A DNA stretch of 8,588 nt, taken from the IMG/VR virus record IMGVR_UViG_2563366821_000008. One strand, given 5' to 3'. This stretch comes from a virus (taxonomy: Duplodnaviria > Heunggongvirae > Uroviricota > Caudoviricetes). The position numbers were made by a program, and so were the translations under genes. Shown piece after piece: positions 956-8,222 of this stretch; the first letter of the stretch is position 1; the number at the start of each line of letters is the position of its first letter. The notes under the pieces were generated by a model. It saw only the letters and a list, made by a program, of their open reading frames with translations. It had not been told where the DNA came from and ran no database searches.

Positions 956-3900
956 ATGGGAAAAGGTGGCGGTAAGGCACACACGCCTCGTGAGGCGAAG
1001 GATAATCTCAAATCCACGCAGATGATGAGTGTGATTGATGCGATTGGTGAGGGACCGATAGAAGGTCCGGTGAAGGGACTGCAGAGTATTCTGGTGAACA
1101 AAACCCCGCTGACGGACACGGACGGTAATCCCGTGATACACGGTGTGACTGCGGTCTGGCGTGCCGGGGAGCAGGAGCAGACACCACCGGAAGGCTTTGA
1201 GTCCTCCGGAGCTGAAACCGGACTGGGCGTGGAAGTGACGAAGGCAAAACCGGTGACGCGCACCATTACGTCCGCGAACATTGACCGCCTGCGGGTTACC
1301 TTCGGGGTGCAGTCACTGGTGCAGACCACGTCAAAGGGCGACCGTAATCCTTCCTCTGTCCGGATTCTGATTCAGTTACAGCGTAATGGCCGCTGGGTGA
1401 CGGAAAAGGATGTCACCATTAACGGCAAGACCACCTCGCAGTTCCTGGCCTCGGTGATTCTGGATAATCTGCCTCCCCGGCCCTTTAACATCCGGATGGT
1501 CAGGGAGACGGCGGACAGCACCACGGACCAGCTGCAGAATAAGACGCTGTGGTCGTCATACACCGAAATCATCGATGTGAAACAGTGCTACCCGAACACG
1601 GCCATTGTGGGGCTGCAGGTGGATGCGGAGCAGTTCGGCGGCCAGCAGATGACGGTGAACTACCATATCCGCGGTCGCATCATCCAGGTGCCGTCAAACT
1701 ATGACCCGGAAAAACGCACGTACAGTGGTATCTGGGACGGCAGCCTGAAACCGGCATACAGCAACAACCCGGCCTGGTGTCTGTGGGACATGCTGACTCA
1801 CCCGCGCTACGGCATGGGAAAACGTCTGGGGGCGGCGGATGTGGACAAGTGGGCGCTGTATGCCATCGGGCAGTACTGCGACCAGACGGTCCCGGATGGT
1901 TTCGGGGGGACCGAGCCGCGGATGACCTTTAATGCGTACCTGGCACAACAGCGTAAGGCGTGGGACGTTCTCAGTGATTTCTGCTCTGCGATGCGCTGTA
2001 TGCCGGTATGGAACGGCCAGACGCTGACGTTCGTTCAGGACCGTCCGTCGGATGTGGTGTGGCCGTACACCAACAGCGATGTGGTGGTGGATGATAACGG
2101 CGTGGGTTTCCGCTACAGCTTCAGTGCCCTGAAGGACCGGCACACGGCAGTGGAGGTGAATTACACCGACCCGCAGAACGGCTGGCAGACCTCCACGGAA
2201 CTGGTGGAAGACCCGGAAGCCATACTGCGCTACGGACGCAACCTGCTGAAGATGGACGCGTTCGGCTGTACCAGCCGCGGTCAGGCCCACCGTGCCGGGC
2301 TGTGGGTGATAAAGACCGAACTGCTGGAAACGCAGACGGTGGATTTCACGCTCGGGTCACAGGGGCTGCGTCACACACCCGGTGACATCATTGAAATCTG
2401 TGATAACGACTATGCCGGGACCATGACCGGCGGACGTGTCCTGTCCATCGATGCCGCCAGCCGTACCCTGACGCTGGACCGGGAGGTGACACTGCCGGAG
2501 ACCGGCACGGCCACTGTTAATCTGATTAACGGCAGCGGTAAGCCGGCGAGCGTGGCCATCACCGCACACCCCGCGCCTGACCGGATACAGGTCAGCACCC
2601 TGCCGGATGGTGTGGAGACATACGGTGTGTGGGGACTCTCCCTGCCGTCACTGCGTCGTCGCCTGTTCCGCTGTGTCTCCATCCGGGAAAACACGGACGG
2701 CACCTTTGCCATCACGGCGGTGCAGCACGTACCTGAAAAAGAAGCCATCGTGGATAACGGGGCCCGCTTTGAGCCGCAGTCAGGCACCCTGAACAGCGTT
2801 ATCCCACCGGCAGTGCAGCACCTGACGGTGGAGGTGAGTGCAGCTGACGGTCAGTATCTGGCACAGGCGAAATGGGACACGCCGCGGGTGGTGAAGGGTG
2901 TGCGCTTCAGTCTGCGTCTGACCAGCGGAAGCGGAGAAGACAGCCGTCTGGTGAGCACCGCCAGCACCGCAGACACGGAGCACCGTTTCAGCGGTCTGCC
3001 GCTGGGGGAATACACCCTGACGGTGCGGGCCATTAACAGCTACGGCCAGCAGGGCGAACCTGCGACCACCACCTTCCGGATTAACGCGCCTGCAAAACCC
3101 GCCACCATTGAGCTGACGCCGGGGTATTTTCAGATAACGGCGGTACCGGTGCTGGCGGTGTATGACCCGACGGTGCAGTTTGAGTTCTGGTTTTCGGAAA
3201 AACGCATCACGAACACGGCACAGGTGGAAAAATCTGCCCGTTATCTGGGGACCGGCAGTCAGTGGACTGTCCAGGGCGATCGGATTAAGCCGGGGATGGA
3301 TTTCTGGTTTTATGTGCGCAGTGTCAACCTGGTGGGCAAGTCTGCATTTGTGGAAGCCAGCGGGCAGGCCAGCAATGATGCAAAAGGGTATCTGGAATTT
3401 TTCCGTGGTCTGATAGATGAGACGCTGCTGGGGCAGGCACTGAAAAAGCGCATTGATGCGTCAGCCCTGCGATCGGATGTCACTCAACTGGAAGAGAATA
3501 TCGGACAACTGGAAGAAGACATCCGTCAGCGGATGGACACGGATATTGCGGAAGTGACCCGGAAAATCGGGGAGGCGGAAAACAGCCTCACGCAGCTGGT
3601 TGCGAAAAAGAATGAGGATCAGACGCTGGCCATCGCGCAGGTGAGTCAGAAAGTGGACCGTGTCAGCAGTGAAATCTCACAGACGGTCAGTCAGAGCAGT
3701 GAGGAAAATACCCGACAGATAGCACAGGTCCGCCAGTACGTGGACAAAAAGCAAAGTGAAATCAAGCAGACAGTCAGCCAGGGCCAGTCAGAAAACGCCC
3801 GGCAGATAGCACAGGTCCGTCAGTACGTGGATGAAAAAGGGAGTGAAATTGCCTCGACCACGGATAAAAAACTGGGTGACCAGGCCGTGACCATACAGCA

Positions 3901-4756
3901 AATCCAGCGGGTTCAGTCAGACACGCGCGATAATCTGAATGCCATGTATATGCTGAAGGTGCAGAAAACGAAGAAGGGTATTCCGTATGTGGCCGGGATT
4001 GGCGCGGGGATCGAGGATGTCGATGGTCAGACGCTGAGTAACATTCTGCTGCAGGCCGATCGCATTGCGATGATTACTCCGGAGAACGGTAACACCACGC
4101 CGTTATTTGTGGCGCAGGGGAATCAGCTGTTCATGAACGACGTGTTCCTGAAGCGACTGTTTGCGGTGAGCATCACGTCATCCGGCAATCCTCCGACGTT
4201 TTCCCTGACGCCGGATGGCAGGCTGACAGCCCGCAATGCGGATATCAGTGGAGCCATCACGGCGAATACCGGCACGCTCAATAATGTCACCATTAACGAG
4301 AACTGTGTCATCAGAGGGAAACTGTCTGCAAACCAGATTGAAGGCGATCTCGTTAAAACAGTGGGTAAGGCTTTCCCCCGTGACTCCCGTGCACCGAAGC
4401 GTTGGCCATCAGGAACCATTACCGTCAGGGTTTATGACGATCAGCCGTTTAACCGGCAGATTGTTATTCCGGCGGTGGCTTTCAGCGGTGCCAGACATGA
4501 GCGGGAGAACAGCGATACTTATTCGTCATGCCGCCTGATAGTGAAGAAAAACGGTGCTGAAATTTATAACCGTACCGCGATGGATAATACGCTGGTTTAC
4601 AGTGGTGTTATTGATATGCCTGCTGGTCGCGGCCACATGACGCTGGAGTTTTCTGTATCAGCATGGTGGGTAAATGGCTGGTATCCCACAGCAAGTATCA
4701 GCGATTTGCTGGTTGTTGTGATGAAGAAAGCCACTGCAGGCATCACGATTAGCTGA
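956..4756 (+). CDS. J: Host specificity protein J (central tail fibre / tip attachment protein), 1266 aa
   Basis: ATG at 956 preceded by ggggaagg. N-terminus [22 protein letters not shown]..., and motifs such as [51 protein letters not shown] and [32 protein letters not shown], match lambda gpJ as I recall it. It is about 130 aa longer than lambda J (recalled as ~1130 aa) because of an internal coiled-coil expansion. Confidence 0.95.
3668..3850 (+). repeat. In-frame 87-bp tandem direct repeat (2 full copies plus the start of a third) inside J
   Basis: The motif agtgaaat recurs at 3668, 3755 and 3842 (period 87 bp = 29 codons). Translated copies are [29 protein letters not shown] and [29 protein letters not shown], followed by SEIAST. 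The nucleotide copies are near-identical in the cagatagcacaggtccg(c/t)cagtacgtgga core. Confidence 0.85.
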
Positions 4757-4823: not shown

Positions 4824-5423
4824 ATGCGTAAATTATGTGCTGCTATTTTGTCCGCAGTAGTCTGGCTGGTTGCCGCTGGTACGCCTGCATGGGCAGCAGA
4901 GCATCAGTCCACACTGAGCGCGGGGTATCTTCATGCCCGTACGAACGCTCCCGGCAGCGATAATCTGAACGGGATTAACGTGAAATACCGTTATGAGTTT
5001 ACGGACACGCTGGGGCTGATTACGTCTTTCAGTTATGCCGACGCAGAGGATGAACAAAAAACGCATTACAACGATACCCGCTGGCATGAAGATTCCGTGC
5101 GTAACCGCTGGTTCAGCGTGATGGCGGGGCCGTCTGTACGCGTGAATGAATGGTTCAGCGCGTATGCGATGGTGGGTGTGGCTTACAGCCGTGTGTCGAC
5201 TTTCTCCGGGGATTATCTCCGCGTAACTGACAACAAGGGGAAAACGCACGATGTGCTGACCGGAAGTGATGACGGTCGCCACAGCAACACGTCTCTGGCG
5301 TGGGGGGCTGGCGTGCAGTTTAACCCGACCGAATCCGTGACCATTGACCTTGCTTATGAAGGTTCCGGTAGTGGCGACTGGCGAACGGATGCATTTATTG
5401 TTGGTATCGGATACCGTTTCTGA
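4824..5423 (+). CDS. lom: Lom-like outer membrane protein (Ail/Lom family 8-strand beta-barrel), 199 aa
   Basis: ATG at 4824 preceded by gagagg. Signal peptide MRKLCAAILSAVVWLVAAGTPAWA with an AxA cleavage motif. GINVKYRYEFTD, SVMAGP, SAYAMVGVAYSR and the C-terminal IDLAYEGSGSGDWRTDAFIVGIGYRF (aromatic terminal residue) match lambda Lom as I recall it. The position directly after J is as in lambda. Confidence 0.9.
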   Translation: MRKLCAAILSAVVWLVAAGTPAWAAEHQSTLSAGYLHARTNAPGSDNLNGINVKYRYEFTDTLGLITSFSYADAEDEQKTHYNDTRWHEDSVRNRWFSVMAGPSVRVNEWFSAYAMVGVAYSRVSTFSGDYLRVTDNKGKTHDVLTGSDDGRHSNTSLAWGAGVQFNPTESVTIDLAYEGSGSGDWRTDAFIVGIGYRF

Positions 5424-5529
5424 CAACAGACGCCGATTTATCTTCTGTAAATATTGTTATGATACGCAGGTTCATCCACCTTATGGGGTGAACTGCGTTT
5501 GAGGAAACGTAAAGTTACACTGTCCTGAA

Positions 5530-5561
5530 GCCCGTGGCGTCACTGCTGCGGGCTTTTTTTA
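5530..5561 (+). terminator. Rho-independent terminator downstream of lom
   Basis: Stem of about 10 bp including G:U pairs (gcccgtggcg / tgctgcgggc) with loop tcac, followed by ttttttt (5554-5560). Immediately upstream of the stf ribosome-binding site. Confidence 0.65.
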
Positions 5562-5574
5562 TTGGTGGAAAAGT

Positions 5575-7641
5575 ATGACAGTAAAAATTTCTGGCGTGCT
5601 TAAAGATGGCACAGGAAAACCAGTACAGAACTGCACCATTGTGCTGAAGGCCAGACGAACCAGCAGCACGGTGGTGGTGAACACGGTGGCCTCTGAAAAT
5701 CCGGATGAAGCCGGACGTTACAGCATGGATGTTGAGCATGGTCAGTACAGCGTCACCCTGCTGGTTGAAGGTTTTCCGCCTTCACATGCCGGGACCATTA
5801 CCGTCTATGAAGGTTCCAGACCAGGTACGCTGAATGATTTTCTCGGCGCCATGACGGAGGATGATGTCCGTCCGGAGGCACTGCGCCGTTTTGAGCTGAT
5901 GGTGAATGAAGTGGCACGTCATGCCGGAGCGTCATCACAGAGTGCAGCGGCGGCAAAGAAATCCGAAACGGCAGCAGCCTCATCGAAGAATGCGGCGAAA
6001 ACCTCAGAAACGAATGCAGCTAACAGCGCACAGGCGGCAGCGGCCTCGCAGACTGCATCGGCAAACTCCGCGACAGCAGCCAAAAAATCAGAAACCAGCG
6101 CGAAAAATAGCGAGACAGCCACAAAGGCCAGCGAAAAAAACGCAAAATCCAGCCAGACGGCAGCGAAAACCAGTGAGACGAATGCCAAAGACAGTGAAGC
6201 CAACGCAAAGGTGAGCGAAACAGCGGCGGCGAACTCGGCGAAAGCATCGGCAGCAAGCCAGACGGCAGCAAAAGCAAGTGAAGATGCTGCCAGAGAATAC
6301 GCAAACCAGACAGCAGAGCCGTACAGATATGTTTTACAGCCGCTGCCGGATGTGTGGATACCCTTTAATGATTCGCTGGATATGATTACGGGCTATTCTC
6401 CGGGTTATAAAAAAGTGAAGATTGGTGATAATGTGGTTCAGGTTGCCAGTGATAAACAGGTTAATTTCAGTCGCGCATCAACGGCAACATATATCAACAA
6501 ATCTGGCGAACTGAAAACGGCGGAAATTAATGAGCCACGATTTGAGTGTGATGGCCTGCTTATTGAGGGGCAAAGAACGAACTTCTTCCCGAACAGTACA
6601 GACCCTTCGAAGTGGAATAAGTCAACTTCACTGGACGTTACAGAAACAGGCACAGATAGTTTCGGGTTTAATTATGGCCGGTTTGTCGTACAGGATTCGA
6701 TTGTTGGTACAAGTAAAGCGCATACCATTATCGGACTGTATTCGAGTACCGGAGGGGTTGATACTTCAGGGGACGAAAAGCATGTAACTATATCCTGTCG
6801 GGTAAAAAGTGAAGTTGATAATATCGCCGTTCGTATTTTATTTGAACATTATGATGGGGAGGTAAGGACATCAATAGGAGCAGCAAACCTGAACCTTACC
6901 ACCCGCATAATTAGCAAGACAGGTCAGACAAGCCGTGTTACAGCAAGGTCTGTTAAGGATGATGCAACTGGCTGGATATTTTTTGAGGCTACATTAAAAG
7001 CAGATACAACAGAAAATACGGTTGGTGGTTTTGTCCAGTATTCTCCGGATACAGGGCAGATGGTTGCATCAGGGGATTATCTCGATGTAACCACTCCACA
7101 GATTGAGGCTGGTACAGGCGCATCATCTTTTATTGTTACGGGGACGGCACCGGTAACGCGGGCAAGCGATATGGTTACAGTTCCGATTAAGAATAATCTT
7201 TATAATCTTCCTTTTACGGTTCTTTGTGAGGTACATAAGAACTGGTATAAAACGCCAAATGCAGCGCCACGTGTTTTTGATACCGGCGGTCATCAAACCG
7301 GAGCGGCTATTATTCTTGGCTTCGGATCTTCGGCAGATGGGCCAGACGGATTTCCTTATTGCGATATTGGTGGATCAAATAGGCGTGTTAACGAAAACGC
7401 ATCGTTGAAAAAAATGGTTATGGGGATGCGTGTAAAGTCAGATCAGTCTACATGTGCAGTAAGTAACGGGCGTATATCCAGCGAAACAAAAACCACATGG
7501 GAATATATCCGGAGTACAGCAATCATTCGCATTGGTGGACAAACTACAGCAGGATTACGCCATTTATTTGGGCATGTGAGGAATTTTCGTCTCTGGCATA
7601 AAGAGCTAACAGATGCGCAGCTTGGGGAGGTTGTGGAGTGA
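5575..7641 (+). CDS. stf: Side tail fibre protein Stf, mosaic: lambda-like N-terminal domain and heptad-repeat shaft joined to a non-lambda C-terminal domain (688 aa)
   Basis: N-terminus MTVKISGVLKDGTGKPVQNCTIVLKAR...GQYSVTLLVEGFPPSHAGTITVYE matches lambda Stf as I recall it. It is followed by an Ala/Ser/Thr/Lys-rich 7-residue repeat shaft, then an AT-richer C-terminal region of about 440 aa ending ...GHVRNFRLWHKELTDAQLGEVVE, which resembles the end motif of LamG-like / concanavalin-like jelly-roll domains (tentative). Confidence 0.9.
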   Translation: MTVKISGVLKDGTGKPVQNCTIVLKARRTSSTVVVNTVASENPDEAGRYSMDVEHGQYSVTLLVEGFPPSHAGTITVYEGSRPGTLNDFLGAMTEDDVRPEALRRFELMVNEVARHAGASSQSAAAAKKSETAAASSKNAAKTSETNAANSAQAAAASQTASANSATAAKKSETSAKNSETATKASEKNAKSSQTAAKTSETNAKDSEANAKVSETAAANSAKASAASQTAAKASEDAAREYANQTAEPYRYVLQPLPDVWIPFNDSLDMITGYSPGYKKVKIGDNVVQVASDKQVNFSRASTATYINKSGELKTAEINEPRFECDGLLIEGQRTNFFPNSTDPSKWNKSTSLDVTETGTDSFGFNYGRFVVQDSIVGTSKAHTIIGLYSSTGGVDTSGDEKHVTISCRVKSEVDNIAVRILFEHYDGEVRTSIGAANLNLTTRIISKTGQTSRVTARSVKDDATGWIFFEATLKADTTENTVGGFVQYSPDTGQMVASGDYLDVTTPQIEAGTGASSFIVTGTAPVTRASDMVTVPIKNNLYNLPFTVLCEVHKNWYKTPNAAPRVFDTGGHQTGAAIILGFGSSADGPDGFPYCDIGGSNRRVNENASLKKMVMGMRVKSDQSTCAVSNGRISSETKTTWEYIRSTAIIRIGGQTTAGLRHLFGHVRNFRLWHKELTDAQLGEVVE
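5935..6300 (+). repeat. Degenerate 21-bp (7-codon) tandem repeat region encoding the Stf shaft
   Basis: The translation parses into heptads (AKTSETN / AANSAQA / AAASQTA / SANSATA / AKKSETS / AKNSETA / TKASEKN / AKSSQTA / AKTSETN / AKDSEAN / AKVSETA ...). The repetition also generates long spurious ORFs in other frames and on the opposite strand. Confidence 0.8.
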
Positions 7642-7916
7642 GAGATTTCACGTTGCGTTTCAGTGATAAAGCAGATTTCAGGGCATTTCTCAGGAAACTT
7701 AACTGGGAAGAGGACGAAGAGCTGCAGAATGCCGTTCTGGTTGATGAGATTGGTTTTACGTTCAGTGAGTCAGGTGTTTCTGCTGACGGGGAGCCAGAAT
7801 ACACGCGAAACGAAGGGTACTTTGTTAATATCCGTCTTCTTGACGATGGCTTTGATGATTCCGTGTTCCGTGAGTGGGTGGTTACACCAGAGCGCCCGCT
7901 CAGGGAGTGGTTTTAA
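7638..7916 (+). CDS. Hypothetical acidic 92-aa protein, translationally coupled to stf (candidate fibre-specific chaperone/assembly factor)
   Basis: GTG start at 7638 overlaps the stf stop (gtGTGa) and is preceded by ggggagg at 7624-7630. There is no in-frame ATG anywhere in the ORF. The protein is highly acidic (many D/E), with no hydrophobic segment. I recognise no family. The overlapping alternative-frame ORF 7663..7965 translates to an Arg/Cys-rich product that does not look protein-like. Confidence 0.6.
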   Translation: MRDFTLRFSDKADFRAFLRKLNWEEDEELQNAVLVDEIGFTFSESGVSADGEPEYTRNEGYFVNIRLLDDGFDDSVFREWVVTPERPLREWF

Positions 7917-7925
7917 GGATAGCAG

Positions 7926-8222
7926 ATGGATATCACGTCGATACTTCATGCAATTTGTGCAGTAGCCGTACAGGGGCTGGTTGGGTGCATTACCGGTGAC
8001 TGGGCTTATGGTGCAGCCATTGCCTGTACGTTTTTTGTTGCCCGCGAATATACCCAGGCAGAATATCGCTGGATTAAGCGTTTTGGTGATGGTCACCGAC
8101 AGAACATGCCGTGGTGGGGCGGTTTTGATCCGCGTGTGTGGAATGTGGCCAGTCTGATGGATTTTGTGGTGCCGGTGGTGGCCTGTGCGGGATTGTATGG
8201 CTGTATGCTGATTTTTAGCTGA
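7926..8222 (+). CDS. Hypothetical small integral membrane protein, 98 aa (2-3 predicted TM segments)
   Basis: ATG at 7926 with aagga 6 nt upstream, 9 bp after the previous stop. Hydrophobic segments ILHAICAVAVQGLVGCI, YGAAIACTFFVA and VASLMDFVVPVVACAGLYGCMLIF. A lipobox-like LVGC occurs at residues 18-21, but the N-region carries no positive charge. A hairpin follows the stop codon. Confidence 0.6.
   Translation: MDITSILHAICAVAVQGLVGCITGDWAYGAAIACTFFVAREYTQAEYRWIKRFGDGHRQNMPWWGGFDPRVWNVASLMDFVVPVVACAGLYGCMLIFS

Follow-up and report, generated by a model that had tools for sequence, protein, structure and literature searches.

A portable, two-domain lectin-like tip predicted for the side tail fibre of a lambda-like Escherichia coli prophage

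What does a side tail fibre that starts like that of phage lambda carry at its far end, and does this end travel as a module of its own? The question is raised by the gene stf (side tail fibre) in a stretch of 8,588 nucleotides of viral DNA (IMG/VR record IMGVR_UViG_2563366821_000008), the whole of which is referred to here as the window. A preliminary description, drawn from the sequence without database searches, had proposed a lambda-like N-terminus and repeat shaft joined to a swapped, possibly LamG-type lectin domain. The present analysis points to a tip of two different lectin-like domains which, together with a short neck and a small downstream gene, recurs on many unrelated phage fibres. 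We assign a probability of about 0.62 to the reading that Stf is the side fibre of a lambda-like temperate phage whose two-lectin tip would bind a surface glycan non-enzymatically for primary adsorption. The gene, its parts and its partner gene are as follows.

5575-7641, plus strand: stf, side tail fibre, 688 residues
5575-5925, plus strand: N-terminal anchor of the lambda-Stf type, residues 1 to about 117, attaching the fibre to the tail tip (placed by PF08400, identity and a breakpoint)
5938-6315, plus strand: heptad shaft, residues 122-247 (placed by heptad register and autocorrelation)
6316-6453, plus strand: neck or joint, residues 248-293, with the PLPDVWIPFNDSL motif and a beta-hairpin, where the portable module starts (placed by conservation, change point and model)
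6454-7176, plus strand: domain 1 (D1), residues about 294-534, a concanavalin-A-like (ConA-like) beta-sandwich of the gene transfer agent (GTA) head spike fibre family
7177-7641, plus strand: domain 2 (D2), residues about 535-688 and the stop codon, a smaller ConA-like sandwich of the Laminin_G_3 type (placed by homologues and profile)
7638-7916, plus strand: orf92, 92 residues

The proximal half of the fibre is of the lambda type, as the preliminary description had it. The Pfam profile PF08400 (prophage tail fibre N-terminal) matches residues 1-131 with an E-value of 4e-68 and 227.9 bits, against a cut-off of 26.6, and BLASTP aligns lambda orf-401 to residues 1-158 with 73% identity. The shaft that follows consists of 18 uninterrupted heptads rich in Ala, Ser, Thr and Lys, with a residue autocorrelation of 0.43, 0.45 and 0.41 at lags of 7, 14 and 21 residues and of 0.09-0.21 at other lags. 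Comparable repeats are present in lambda orf-401, and the shaft is presumed to form a trimeric coiled coil.

Beyond the shaft, BLASTP gives the C-terminal 440 or so residues no significant match in lambda orf-314, which is the distal part of lambda Stf (best E-value of 1.5), in agreement with the claim that they are unrelated, and no high-identity match to a well-characterised Stf was found. PHROGs assigns the protein to phrog_1419, a 'tail protein' family. The distal DNA is also AT-richer, at the place where the preliminary description had put the change: the GC content is 0.544 over 5575-6300 and 0.446 over 6301-7641, and that of third codon positions (GC3) is 0.521 and 0.371, respectively, with a maximum-likelihood change point at 6270-6364. 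At the boundary fixed beforehand by the preliminary description, the difference amounts by our own arithmetic to about 4 standard errors for GC and about 3.8 for GC3, and the composition break thus exceeds chance. Because GC3 shifts as well, the break is not merely due to the GCN codons of the Ala-rich shaft. The AT-rich string that had been quoted lies at 6405-6471, whereas the coordinate 6300 marks the right boundary but is one base out of frame, as residue 243 starts at 6301.

The similarity that runs through the whole family starts at PLPDVWIPFNDSL (PLPDVW, residues 255-261), eight residues past the last heptad. Within the neck, P258, D259, W261, P263 and L268 are nearly invariant among 53 family members with unrelated N-termini (alignment numbering plus 242 gives the Stf residue number), and the model described below places strands at 18-20, 35-41 and 44-50, in model numbering, with a predicted local distance difference test score (pLDDT) of 81-94. 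The start of the family-wide similarity coincides with the GC change point, implying a genuine module boundary at the junction that had been proposed after the shaft. This junction is, however, not the sole joint. In the 3,510 complete E. coli genomes that share parts of the allele only, the commonest megablast breakpoint lies at about 5919-5925 (residues 115-117 or so, the end of the anchor), with additional ones near 6198, 6545-6586, 7586 and 8186. Among these breakpoints are ones where the conserved frame meets the variable sandwich bodies, both described below. The breakpoints indicate that the E. coli alleles are more mosaic than a single joint after the shaft.

An initial homologue search with the tip returned only relatives at least 94% identical. 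The tip was modelled with AlphaFold2 as a monomer from an alignment of the window sequence and 52 diverse members obtained in a search of 50%-identity representatives. The model (pLDDT 92, predicted template modelling score (pTM) 0.89) is all-beta and comprises two ConA-like beta-sandwiches. Foldseek concurs with this fold class, and the modelled tip superposes on solved ConA-like domains, which bears out the jelly-roll lectin fold that had been suggested.

The larger sandwich, D1, is not of the LamG type. The NCBIfam model NF048003 (GTA_spike_fiber, 'phage head spike fiber domain') matches residues 329-530 with 72.1 bits, against a cut-off of 36, and the match spans positions 1-181 of the 182 in the profile. 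A search of the PDB with the single sequence gave one significant match, the head spike fibre Rcc01080 of RcGTA (E-value of 7e-6), to which the family profile aligns with an E-value of 1e-40. D1 combines a conserved frame (residues 294-340 and 503-532) with a hypervariable body (residues 343-502). The invariant residues R300, R322, E331, N336, Q509 and E511 are also kept in Rcc01080 and are assumed to form a structural clasp between the N- and C-terminal strands. D1-type domains are also found inserted in a baseplate protein of Pseudomonas phages and on the distal tail protein of Shigella phage Sf11, and a protein of 4,244 residues from a metagenome and genome collection (P0248) contains six tandem copies with Gly/Ser/Thr-rich repeats between them.

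The LamG assignment that had been suggested for the tip is supported for D2, through homologues and fold only. The open reading frame (ORF) indeed ends with the C-terminus quoted in its favour, GHVRNFRLWHKELTDAQLGEVVE, and this terminal strand is conserved in the family as RHLFGHxRNxRxWHxxLTDxQ. The profile PF13385 (Laminin_G_3) matches the equivalent last 150 residues or so in 33 of the 53 aligned members, and exceeds its cut-off of 27.6 bits in three of six members checked singly (P0157, 44.8 bits; P0176, 34.2 bits; P0141, 30.0 bits, the last being 42% identical to the window module). In its D2 part, the family profile reaches C-reactive protein, BoNT/D HcN and an S-layer protein at E-values of 1e-4 to 1e-3. 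An origin of D1 and D2 by internal duplication was considered and rejected, as hhalign shows no homology between them. Taken together, profiles and model predict a tip of two independently folding ConA-like domains, D1 of the GTA head spike fibre type and D2 of the Laminin_G_3 type.

Relatives of the module fall into 3,048 clusters at 50% identity among the 1.84 billion representative proteins that were searched. In the full-length matches listed, the module is C-terminal, and these proteins range from 424 to 1,481 residues. It was found in 223 phage records, with carriers among lambda-like phages, T1-like Drexlerviridae, Dhillonvirus, Nonagvirus, T5-like Tequintavirus and rV5-like Vequintavirus. 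At least six unrelated N-terminal anchors precede it: lambda Stf (PF08400), P2-type tail-collar (PF12571), TSP1/gp66-type (PF18668), Phage_fiber_2, the T7 fibre N-terminus and collagen repeats. The check that had been proposed, a search for the same tip on unrelated fibre N-termini, thus came out in favour of the preliminary description. Per-column conservation divides the module into a frame (residues 253-340, 503-532 and 653-682) and two hypervariable bodies (residues 343-502 and 533-652).

The downstream gene orf92 appears to belong to the same unit. Its GTG start codon overlaps the stop codon of stf (GTGA), with a Shine-Dalgarno-like GGGGAGG upstream, and orf92 is on this evidence translationally coupled to stf. 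It occupies the position of tfa; its product gives no alignment to lambda Tfa and no Tfa-type match in Pfam, NCBIfam or PHROGs. An orf92 homologue lies directly 3' of the module in nine of the nine other loci examined, at distances of -4 to +45 nucleotides, and the homologues are 22-52% identical across lineages. This consistent adjacency implies that the exchanged unit includes orf92, so that the cassette that had been proposed is portable as described but is larger than the tip. Judged from these sequence comparisons, the neck, D1, D2 and the coupled 92-residue gene constitute a portable cassette carried by many unrelated phage fibres.

In E. coli the allele is common. At least 80% of it is present in 290 of 5,426 complete genomes (about 5%), and about 290 complete genomes retain both module and orf92 intact, with a conservation of 95-100%. 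The tip may be called swapped in the sense that it belongs to a common allele family, but the swap is not demonstrably a recent event. In E. coli WP4-S17-ESBL-08 (NZ_AP022049.1), an IS3-family transposase divides the stf allele, leaving an N-terminal piece and a 'phage head spike fiber domain-containing protein'. The module is also carried, at 67% and 42% identity, respectively, by two records with the name 'Campylobacter phage C13/C15' (MG065692.1 and MG065654.1), whose host or name labels look doubtful.

How such a fibre might work can be outlined as follows. The heptad shaft would trimerise, so that each fibre would display three globular two-domain lectin heads. The hypervariable sandwich bodies may bind a surface polysaccharide (O-antigen, capsule or lipopolysaccharide core) reversibly and without cleavage. 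Phage particles would thereby gather at the cell surface, ahead of the irreversible attachment of the central fibre J to an outer-membrane protein receptor. The heads are anticipated to fold on their own, in which case a lambda-type Tfa chaperone would not be needed, and orf92 would serve the module specifically, as a partner in assembly or stabilisation.

Binding of a glycan is argued from the ConA-like fold class and from the one homologue studied by experiment, the RcGTA head spike fibre, which binds capsular polysaccharide (PMC7296036; PMC10218006). Further arguments are that D1 recurs as a decoration at the periphery of capsids, distal tail proteins and baseplates, that the alleles are hypervariable, and that lateral fibres of module-carrying siphoviruses are held to bind O-antigen as the primary receptor (PMC8594841). 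Folding without a chaperone is argued from the high monomer pTM, the GTA fibre (the D1 homologue on the GTA head spike is a single-copy monomer), the six-copy tandem protein and the absence of tfa. Stf has no Pfam match to the Peptidase_S74 C-terminal chaperone and ends in the LamG-type strand.

Several observations weigh against a glycan-binding, two-lectin tip. No receptor and no solved tip structure was found for any member of the fibre-tip family. The parts homologous to D1 are unmodelled in Rcc01080 (6TB9, modelled at residues 2-10 only) and in Sf11 gp17 (9OCC, residues 3-165); D1-type domains are fully modelled only in Pa193 gp46 and E217 gp45. The window Stf itself gives no LamG match against Pfam even at an E-value of up to 5, and the LamG membership of its D2 consequently rests on matching homologues and fold. 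The invariant polar residues of D1 could be an active or ligand site instead of a clasp. Finally, the strains named as carriers of this allele, O25b:H4, O10 and O2:H1 ones among them, do not point to a single O-antigen.

This spread of serotypes would suit a tip that binds a protein receptor, such as the porin OmpC reported for the Stf of Ur-lambda. ConA-like domains are able to bind proteins; elsewhere, contacts between proteins are made through LamG and ConA-like domains, and the Stf of lambda itself reportedly uses OmpC. The tip of the window Stf, however, has no homology to the distal part of lambda Stf, and the RcGTA domain to which it is homologous in sequence binds capsule. D1 is found on heads, distal tail proteins and baseplates, sites whose usual decorations are carbohydrate-binding modules, and the extreme allelic diversity of the sandwich bodies suits the diversity of glycans better. 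A protein receptor is accordingly regarded as unlikely.

The genes that follow the module in other phages raise a further alternative. Seven of the nine other loci have a second fibre gene, which begins 6-12 nucleotides after the orf92 homologue; start positions are given here by locus.

Second fibre starts: L002, 5587; L006, 3123; L007, 3126; L008, 3141; L009, about 3092; L010, 3088

Most of these second fibres share the N-terminal motif T-x-IP-x-DI-x-x-LK, with peptides such as MATxTVIPxDITKLKxDVSxLK and MTTYTNIPxDITKLKDEK in T5-like, lambda-like, T1-like, Dhillonvirus and Nonagvirus phages; their bodies are otherwise unrelated. The shared peptide looks like the docking motif of a branched fibre, and branched lateral fibres are documented for T5-like phages (PMC4728585). 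The module might then be a docking hub, with the second fibre carrying the real receptor-binding tip and the prophage version being a reduced remnant. By contrast, the window and phage PhiR49_2 have no second fibre after orf92, yet module and orf92 are intact in about 290 genomes. Hypervariable sandwich bodies are not expected of a pure hub, and in the rV5-like phage JeffSchatz the module ends a fibre of 1,479 residues. We consider the hub rather unlikely. The retention of orf92 in the window, where the second fibre is lacking, favours a role tied to the module, in folding or stabilisation, over that of a pure branch adaptor.

In the window, the slot held by the second fibre gene in seven other phages is taken by another small gene, which begins 9 nucleotides after orf92.

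7926-8222, plus strand: orf98, 98 residues, small and hydrophobic

Its product belongs to PHROG 1443 (function unassigned), has three hydrophobic segments resembling membrane spans, and gives no match in Pfam, NCBIfam or PADLOC. The gene is co-linear with the cassette in PhiR49_2 and in E. coli SCU-125. It is probably not a fibre component and may be a lysogenic-conversion or exclusion 'moron' that replaces the second fibre gene.

A wider proposal, which we put forward tentatively, is that neck, D1, D2 and the orf92-family protein form a distinct, Tfa-independent tip system in at least seven coliphage lineages. In that proposal, an optional second fibre would dock via T-x-IP-x-DI-x-x-LK; the tip would be a three-headed 'bouquet' and not an intertwined trimer; D1 would be a mobile lectin also found on GTA capsids, distal tail proteins and myovirus baseplates; and the partner of about 90 residues might act as chaperone, cap or branch adaptor.

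That the tip is instead an enzyme, with D1 cleaving O-antigen or capsule as a glycanase or lyase of the ConA fold, in the manner of a tailspike, appears improbable. The invariant Glu, Gln and Arg residues would provide an active site for such an enzyme. No pectin-lyase-like beta-helix and no glycosidase or lyase family was found in Stf with Pfam, NCBIfam or PHROGs, the ConA-like domain's own catalysis not having been assayed. Least probable by far is that stf no longer functions and is decaying within a cryptic prophage: defective tail regions are frequent among E. coli prophages and an IS3 element splits one allele, but the ORF runs uninterrupted over 688 codons with coupled genes downstream, the neighbours I, J and lom are intact, a protein identical over residues 243-688 exists in public collections, and the isolated phage PhiR49_2 shares the layout.

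The reading of Stf as a side fibre with a two-lectin tip can be placed among known systems. Lambda Stf (orf-401/orf-314 of lambda PaPa) shares with it the J-lom-stf slot, a homologous anchor, an Ala/Ser/Thr-rich repeat shaft and the presumed role of an accessory fibre for primary adsorption. The distal 440 residues or so are unrelated, and lambda has tfa where the window has the unrelated 92-residue gene. A lambda-type Stf tip depends on the Tfa chaperone, whereas that of the window is predicted to form two globular lectin-like sandwiches. Rcc01080 (GhsB) is homologous to D1 in sequence, shares its invariant frame residues, and is experimentally capsule-binding and described as lectin-like. 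It differs in being a capsid-located protein of 325 residues without D2, present as one monomer per pentameric base and anchored by a 10-residue N-terminal peptide, and it belongs to an alphaproteobacterial GTA, not to a coliphage tail.

Counterparts of the whole module are lateral fibres of virulent coliphages, held to bind O-antigen or other surface glycans, that share neck, D1 and D2 with 36-67% identity, among them SelmaRatti Bas34 gp21 (T5-like) and JeffSchatz Bas55 gp26 (rV5-like). Further carriers are the T1-like phages tunus and SECphi27, Nonagvirus BRET, Dhillonvirus and the lambda-like 2G7b. In these coliphage fibres the module is always C-terminal and the orf92 homologue always next; anchors and shafts differ, and most add the second fibre gene that the window lacks. 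No receptor mapped to the module in these lateral fibres was found in the literature. The insertions in the baseplate triplex proteins Pa193 gp46 and E217 gp45 and the C-terminal appendage of Sf11 gp17 are scaffold decorations and not fibre tips. ConA-like domains of the laminin-G, pentraxin, BoNT HcN and CBM40 types have the fold common to D1 and D2, and the motif of the C-terminal strand of D2 is typical of Pfam Laminin_G_3; to ConA-like lectins the relatedness is at the superfamily level only (7-18% identity). LtfA and LtfB of DT57C, O-antigen-binding fibres of a T5-like phage, were considered as a characterised relative and rejected, since they end in Peptidase_S74 chaperone domains (pfam13884; PMC4728585).

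The remaining features of the window are listed below.

31-612: tail assembly gene I
613-955: AT-rich spacer of 340 bp between I and J
956-4756: central fibre gene J, 1,266 residues, with all lambda-J domains present
4824-5423: lom
After orf98, opposite strand: DinI-like gene

Gene content and order show the window to cover the distal part of the late operon in a lambda-like E. coli prophage, and the order I-J-lom-stf places stf in the slot of the lambda side fibre. The isolated phage PhiR49_2 (host ECOR13 according to its record) also has the order J-lom-stf-orf92-orf98-dinI, and a matching J-lom-stf-orf-orf-dinI layout is present in the chromosome of E. coli SCU-125 with 97% DNA identity. 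A public protein identical over the entire 446-residue query (residues 243-688) is named 'prophage tail fiber N-terminal domain-containing protein'.

Three observations concern the neighbourhood of stf. The I-J spacer has a GC content of 42% and is missing in lambda and in the closest complete-genome prophage, in which the I-J gap is 60 bp; it occurs, unannotated, in 1,445 of the 5,426 complete E. coli genomes, O157:H7 among them. Its minus strand has a near-consensus sigma-70 promoter (TTCACA-16-TATAAT, 750 to 723) and an intrinsic terminator (644 to 628) followed by ATTTTTTTAT, which suggest a small transcript of about 90 nucleotides. A strong hairpin lies at about 826-856, and a scan of the window, spacer included, with Rfam gave no family at the gathering threshold. 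J is longer than in lambda (1,266 as against 1,132 residues), with an insertion of about 135 residues (roughly 838-975), rich in Gln and charged residues and coiled-coil-like, directly before the tail-tip fibre domains. Residues 975-1266, which include the receptor-binding domain, are just 51% identical to lambda J, so that the central fibre probably uses a different receptor variant too. Between lom and stf, a strong hairpin resembling an intrinsic terminator, on the plus strand (5527-5556; 13-bp stem and T run), ends 19 nucleotides upstream of the stf start; stf would presumably have to be expressed from the Q-antiterminated late transcript, by read-through of this hairpin.

That fibre tips are exchanged as modules is textbook knowledge on phages, and lectin-like receptor-binding domains are well known. 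The stf gene of the window is an ordinary example of modular host-range swapping, and its description as such is correct rather than surprising. Sister alleles are already labelled 'phage head spike fiber domain-containing protein' by the NCBI pipeline; no description of this tip type on coliphage fibres, or of its small partner, was found in the literature, both BASEL papers included. Side and lateral fibres set the first step of host recognition and are what is swapped when phages or lambda-derived delivery particles are retargeted. The allele family is common: this allele is present in about 5% of complete E. coli genomes and sister alleles in many more, and the module is found again in T1-like, T5-like, rV5-like, Dhillonvirus and Nonagvirus phages of therapy collections. 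A head of two lectins predicted to fold by itself, the division of the sandwiches into frame and bodies, and a small partner in place of Tfa would provide practical boundaries for the design of chimeric fibres and for sequence-based prediction of host range. Current understanding is not overturned by these results; they fill in a tip type that is widespread but uncharacterised.

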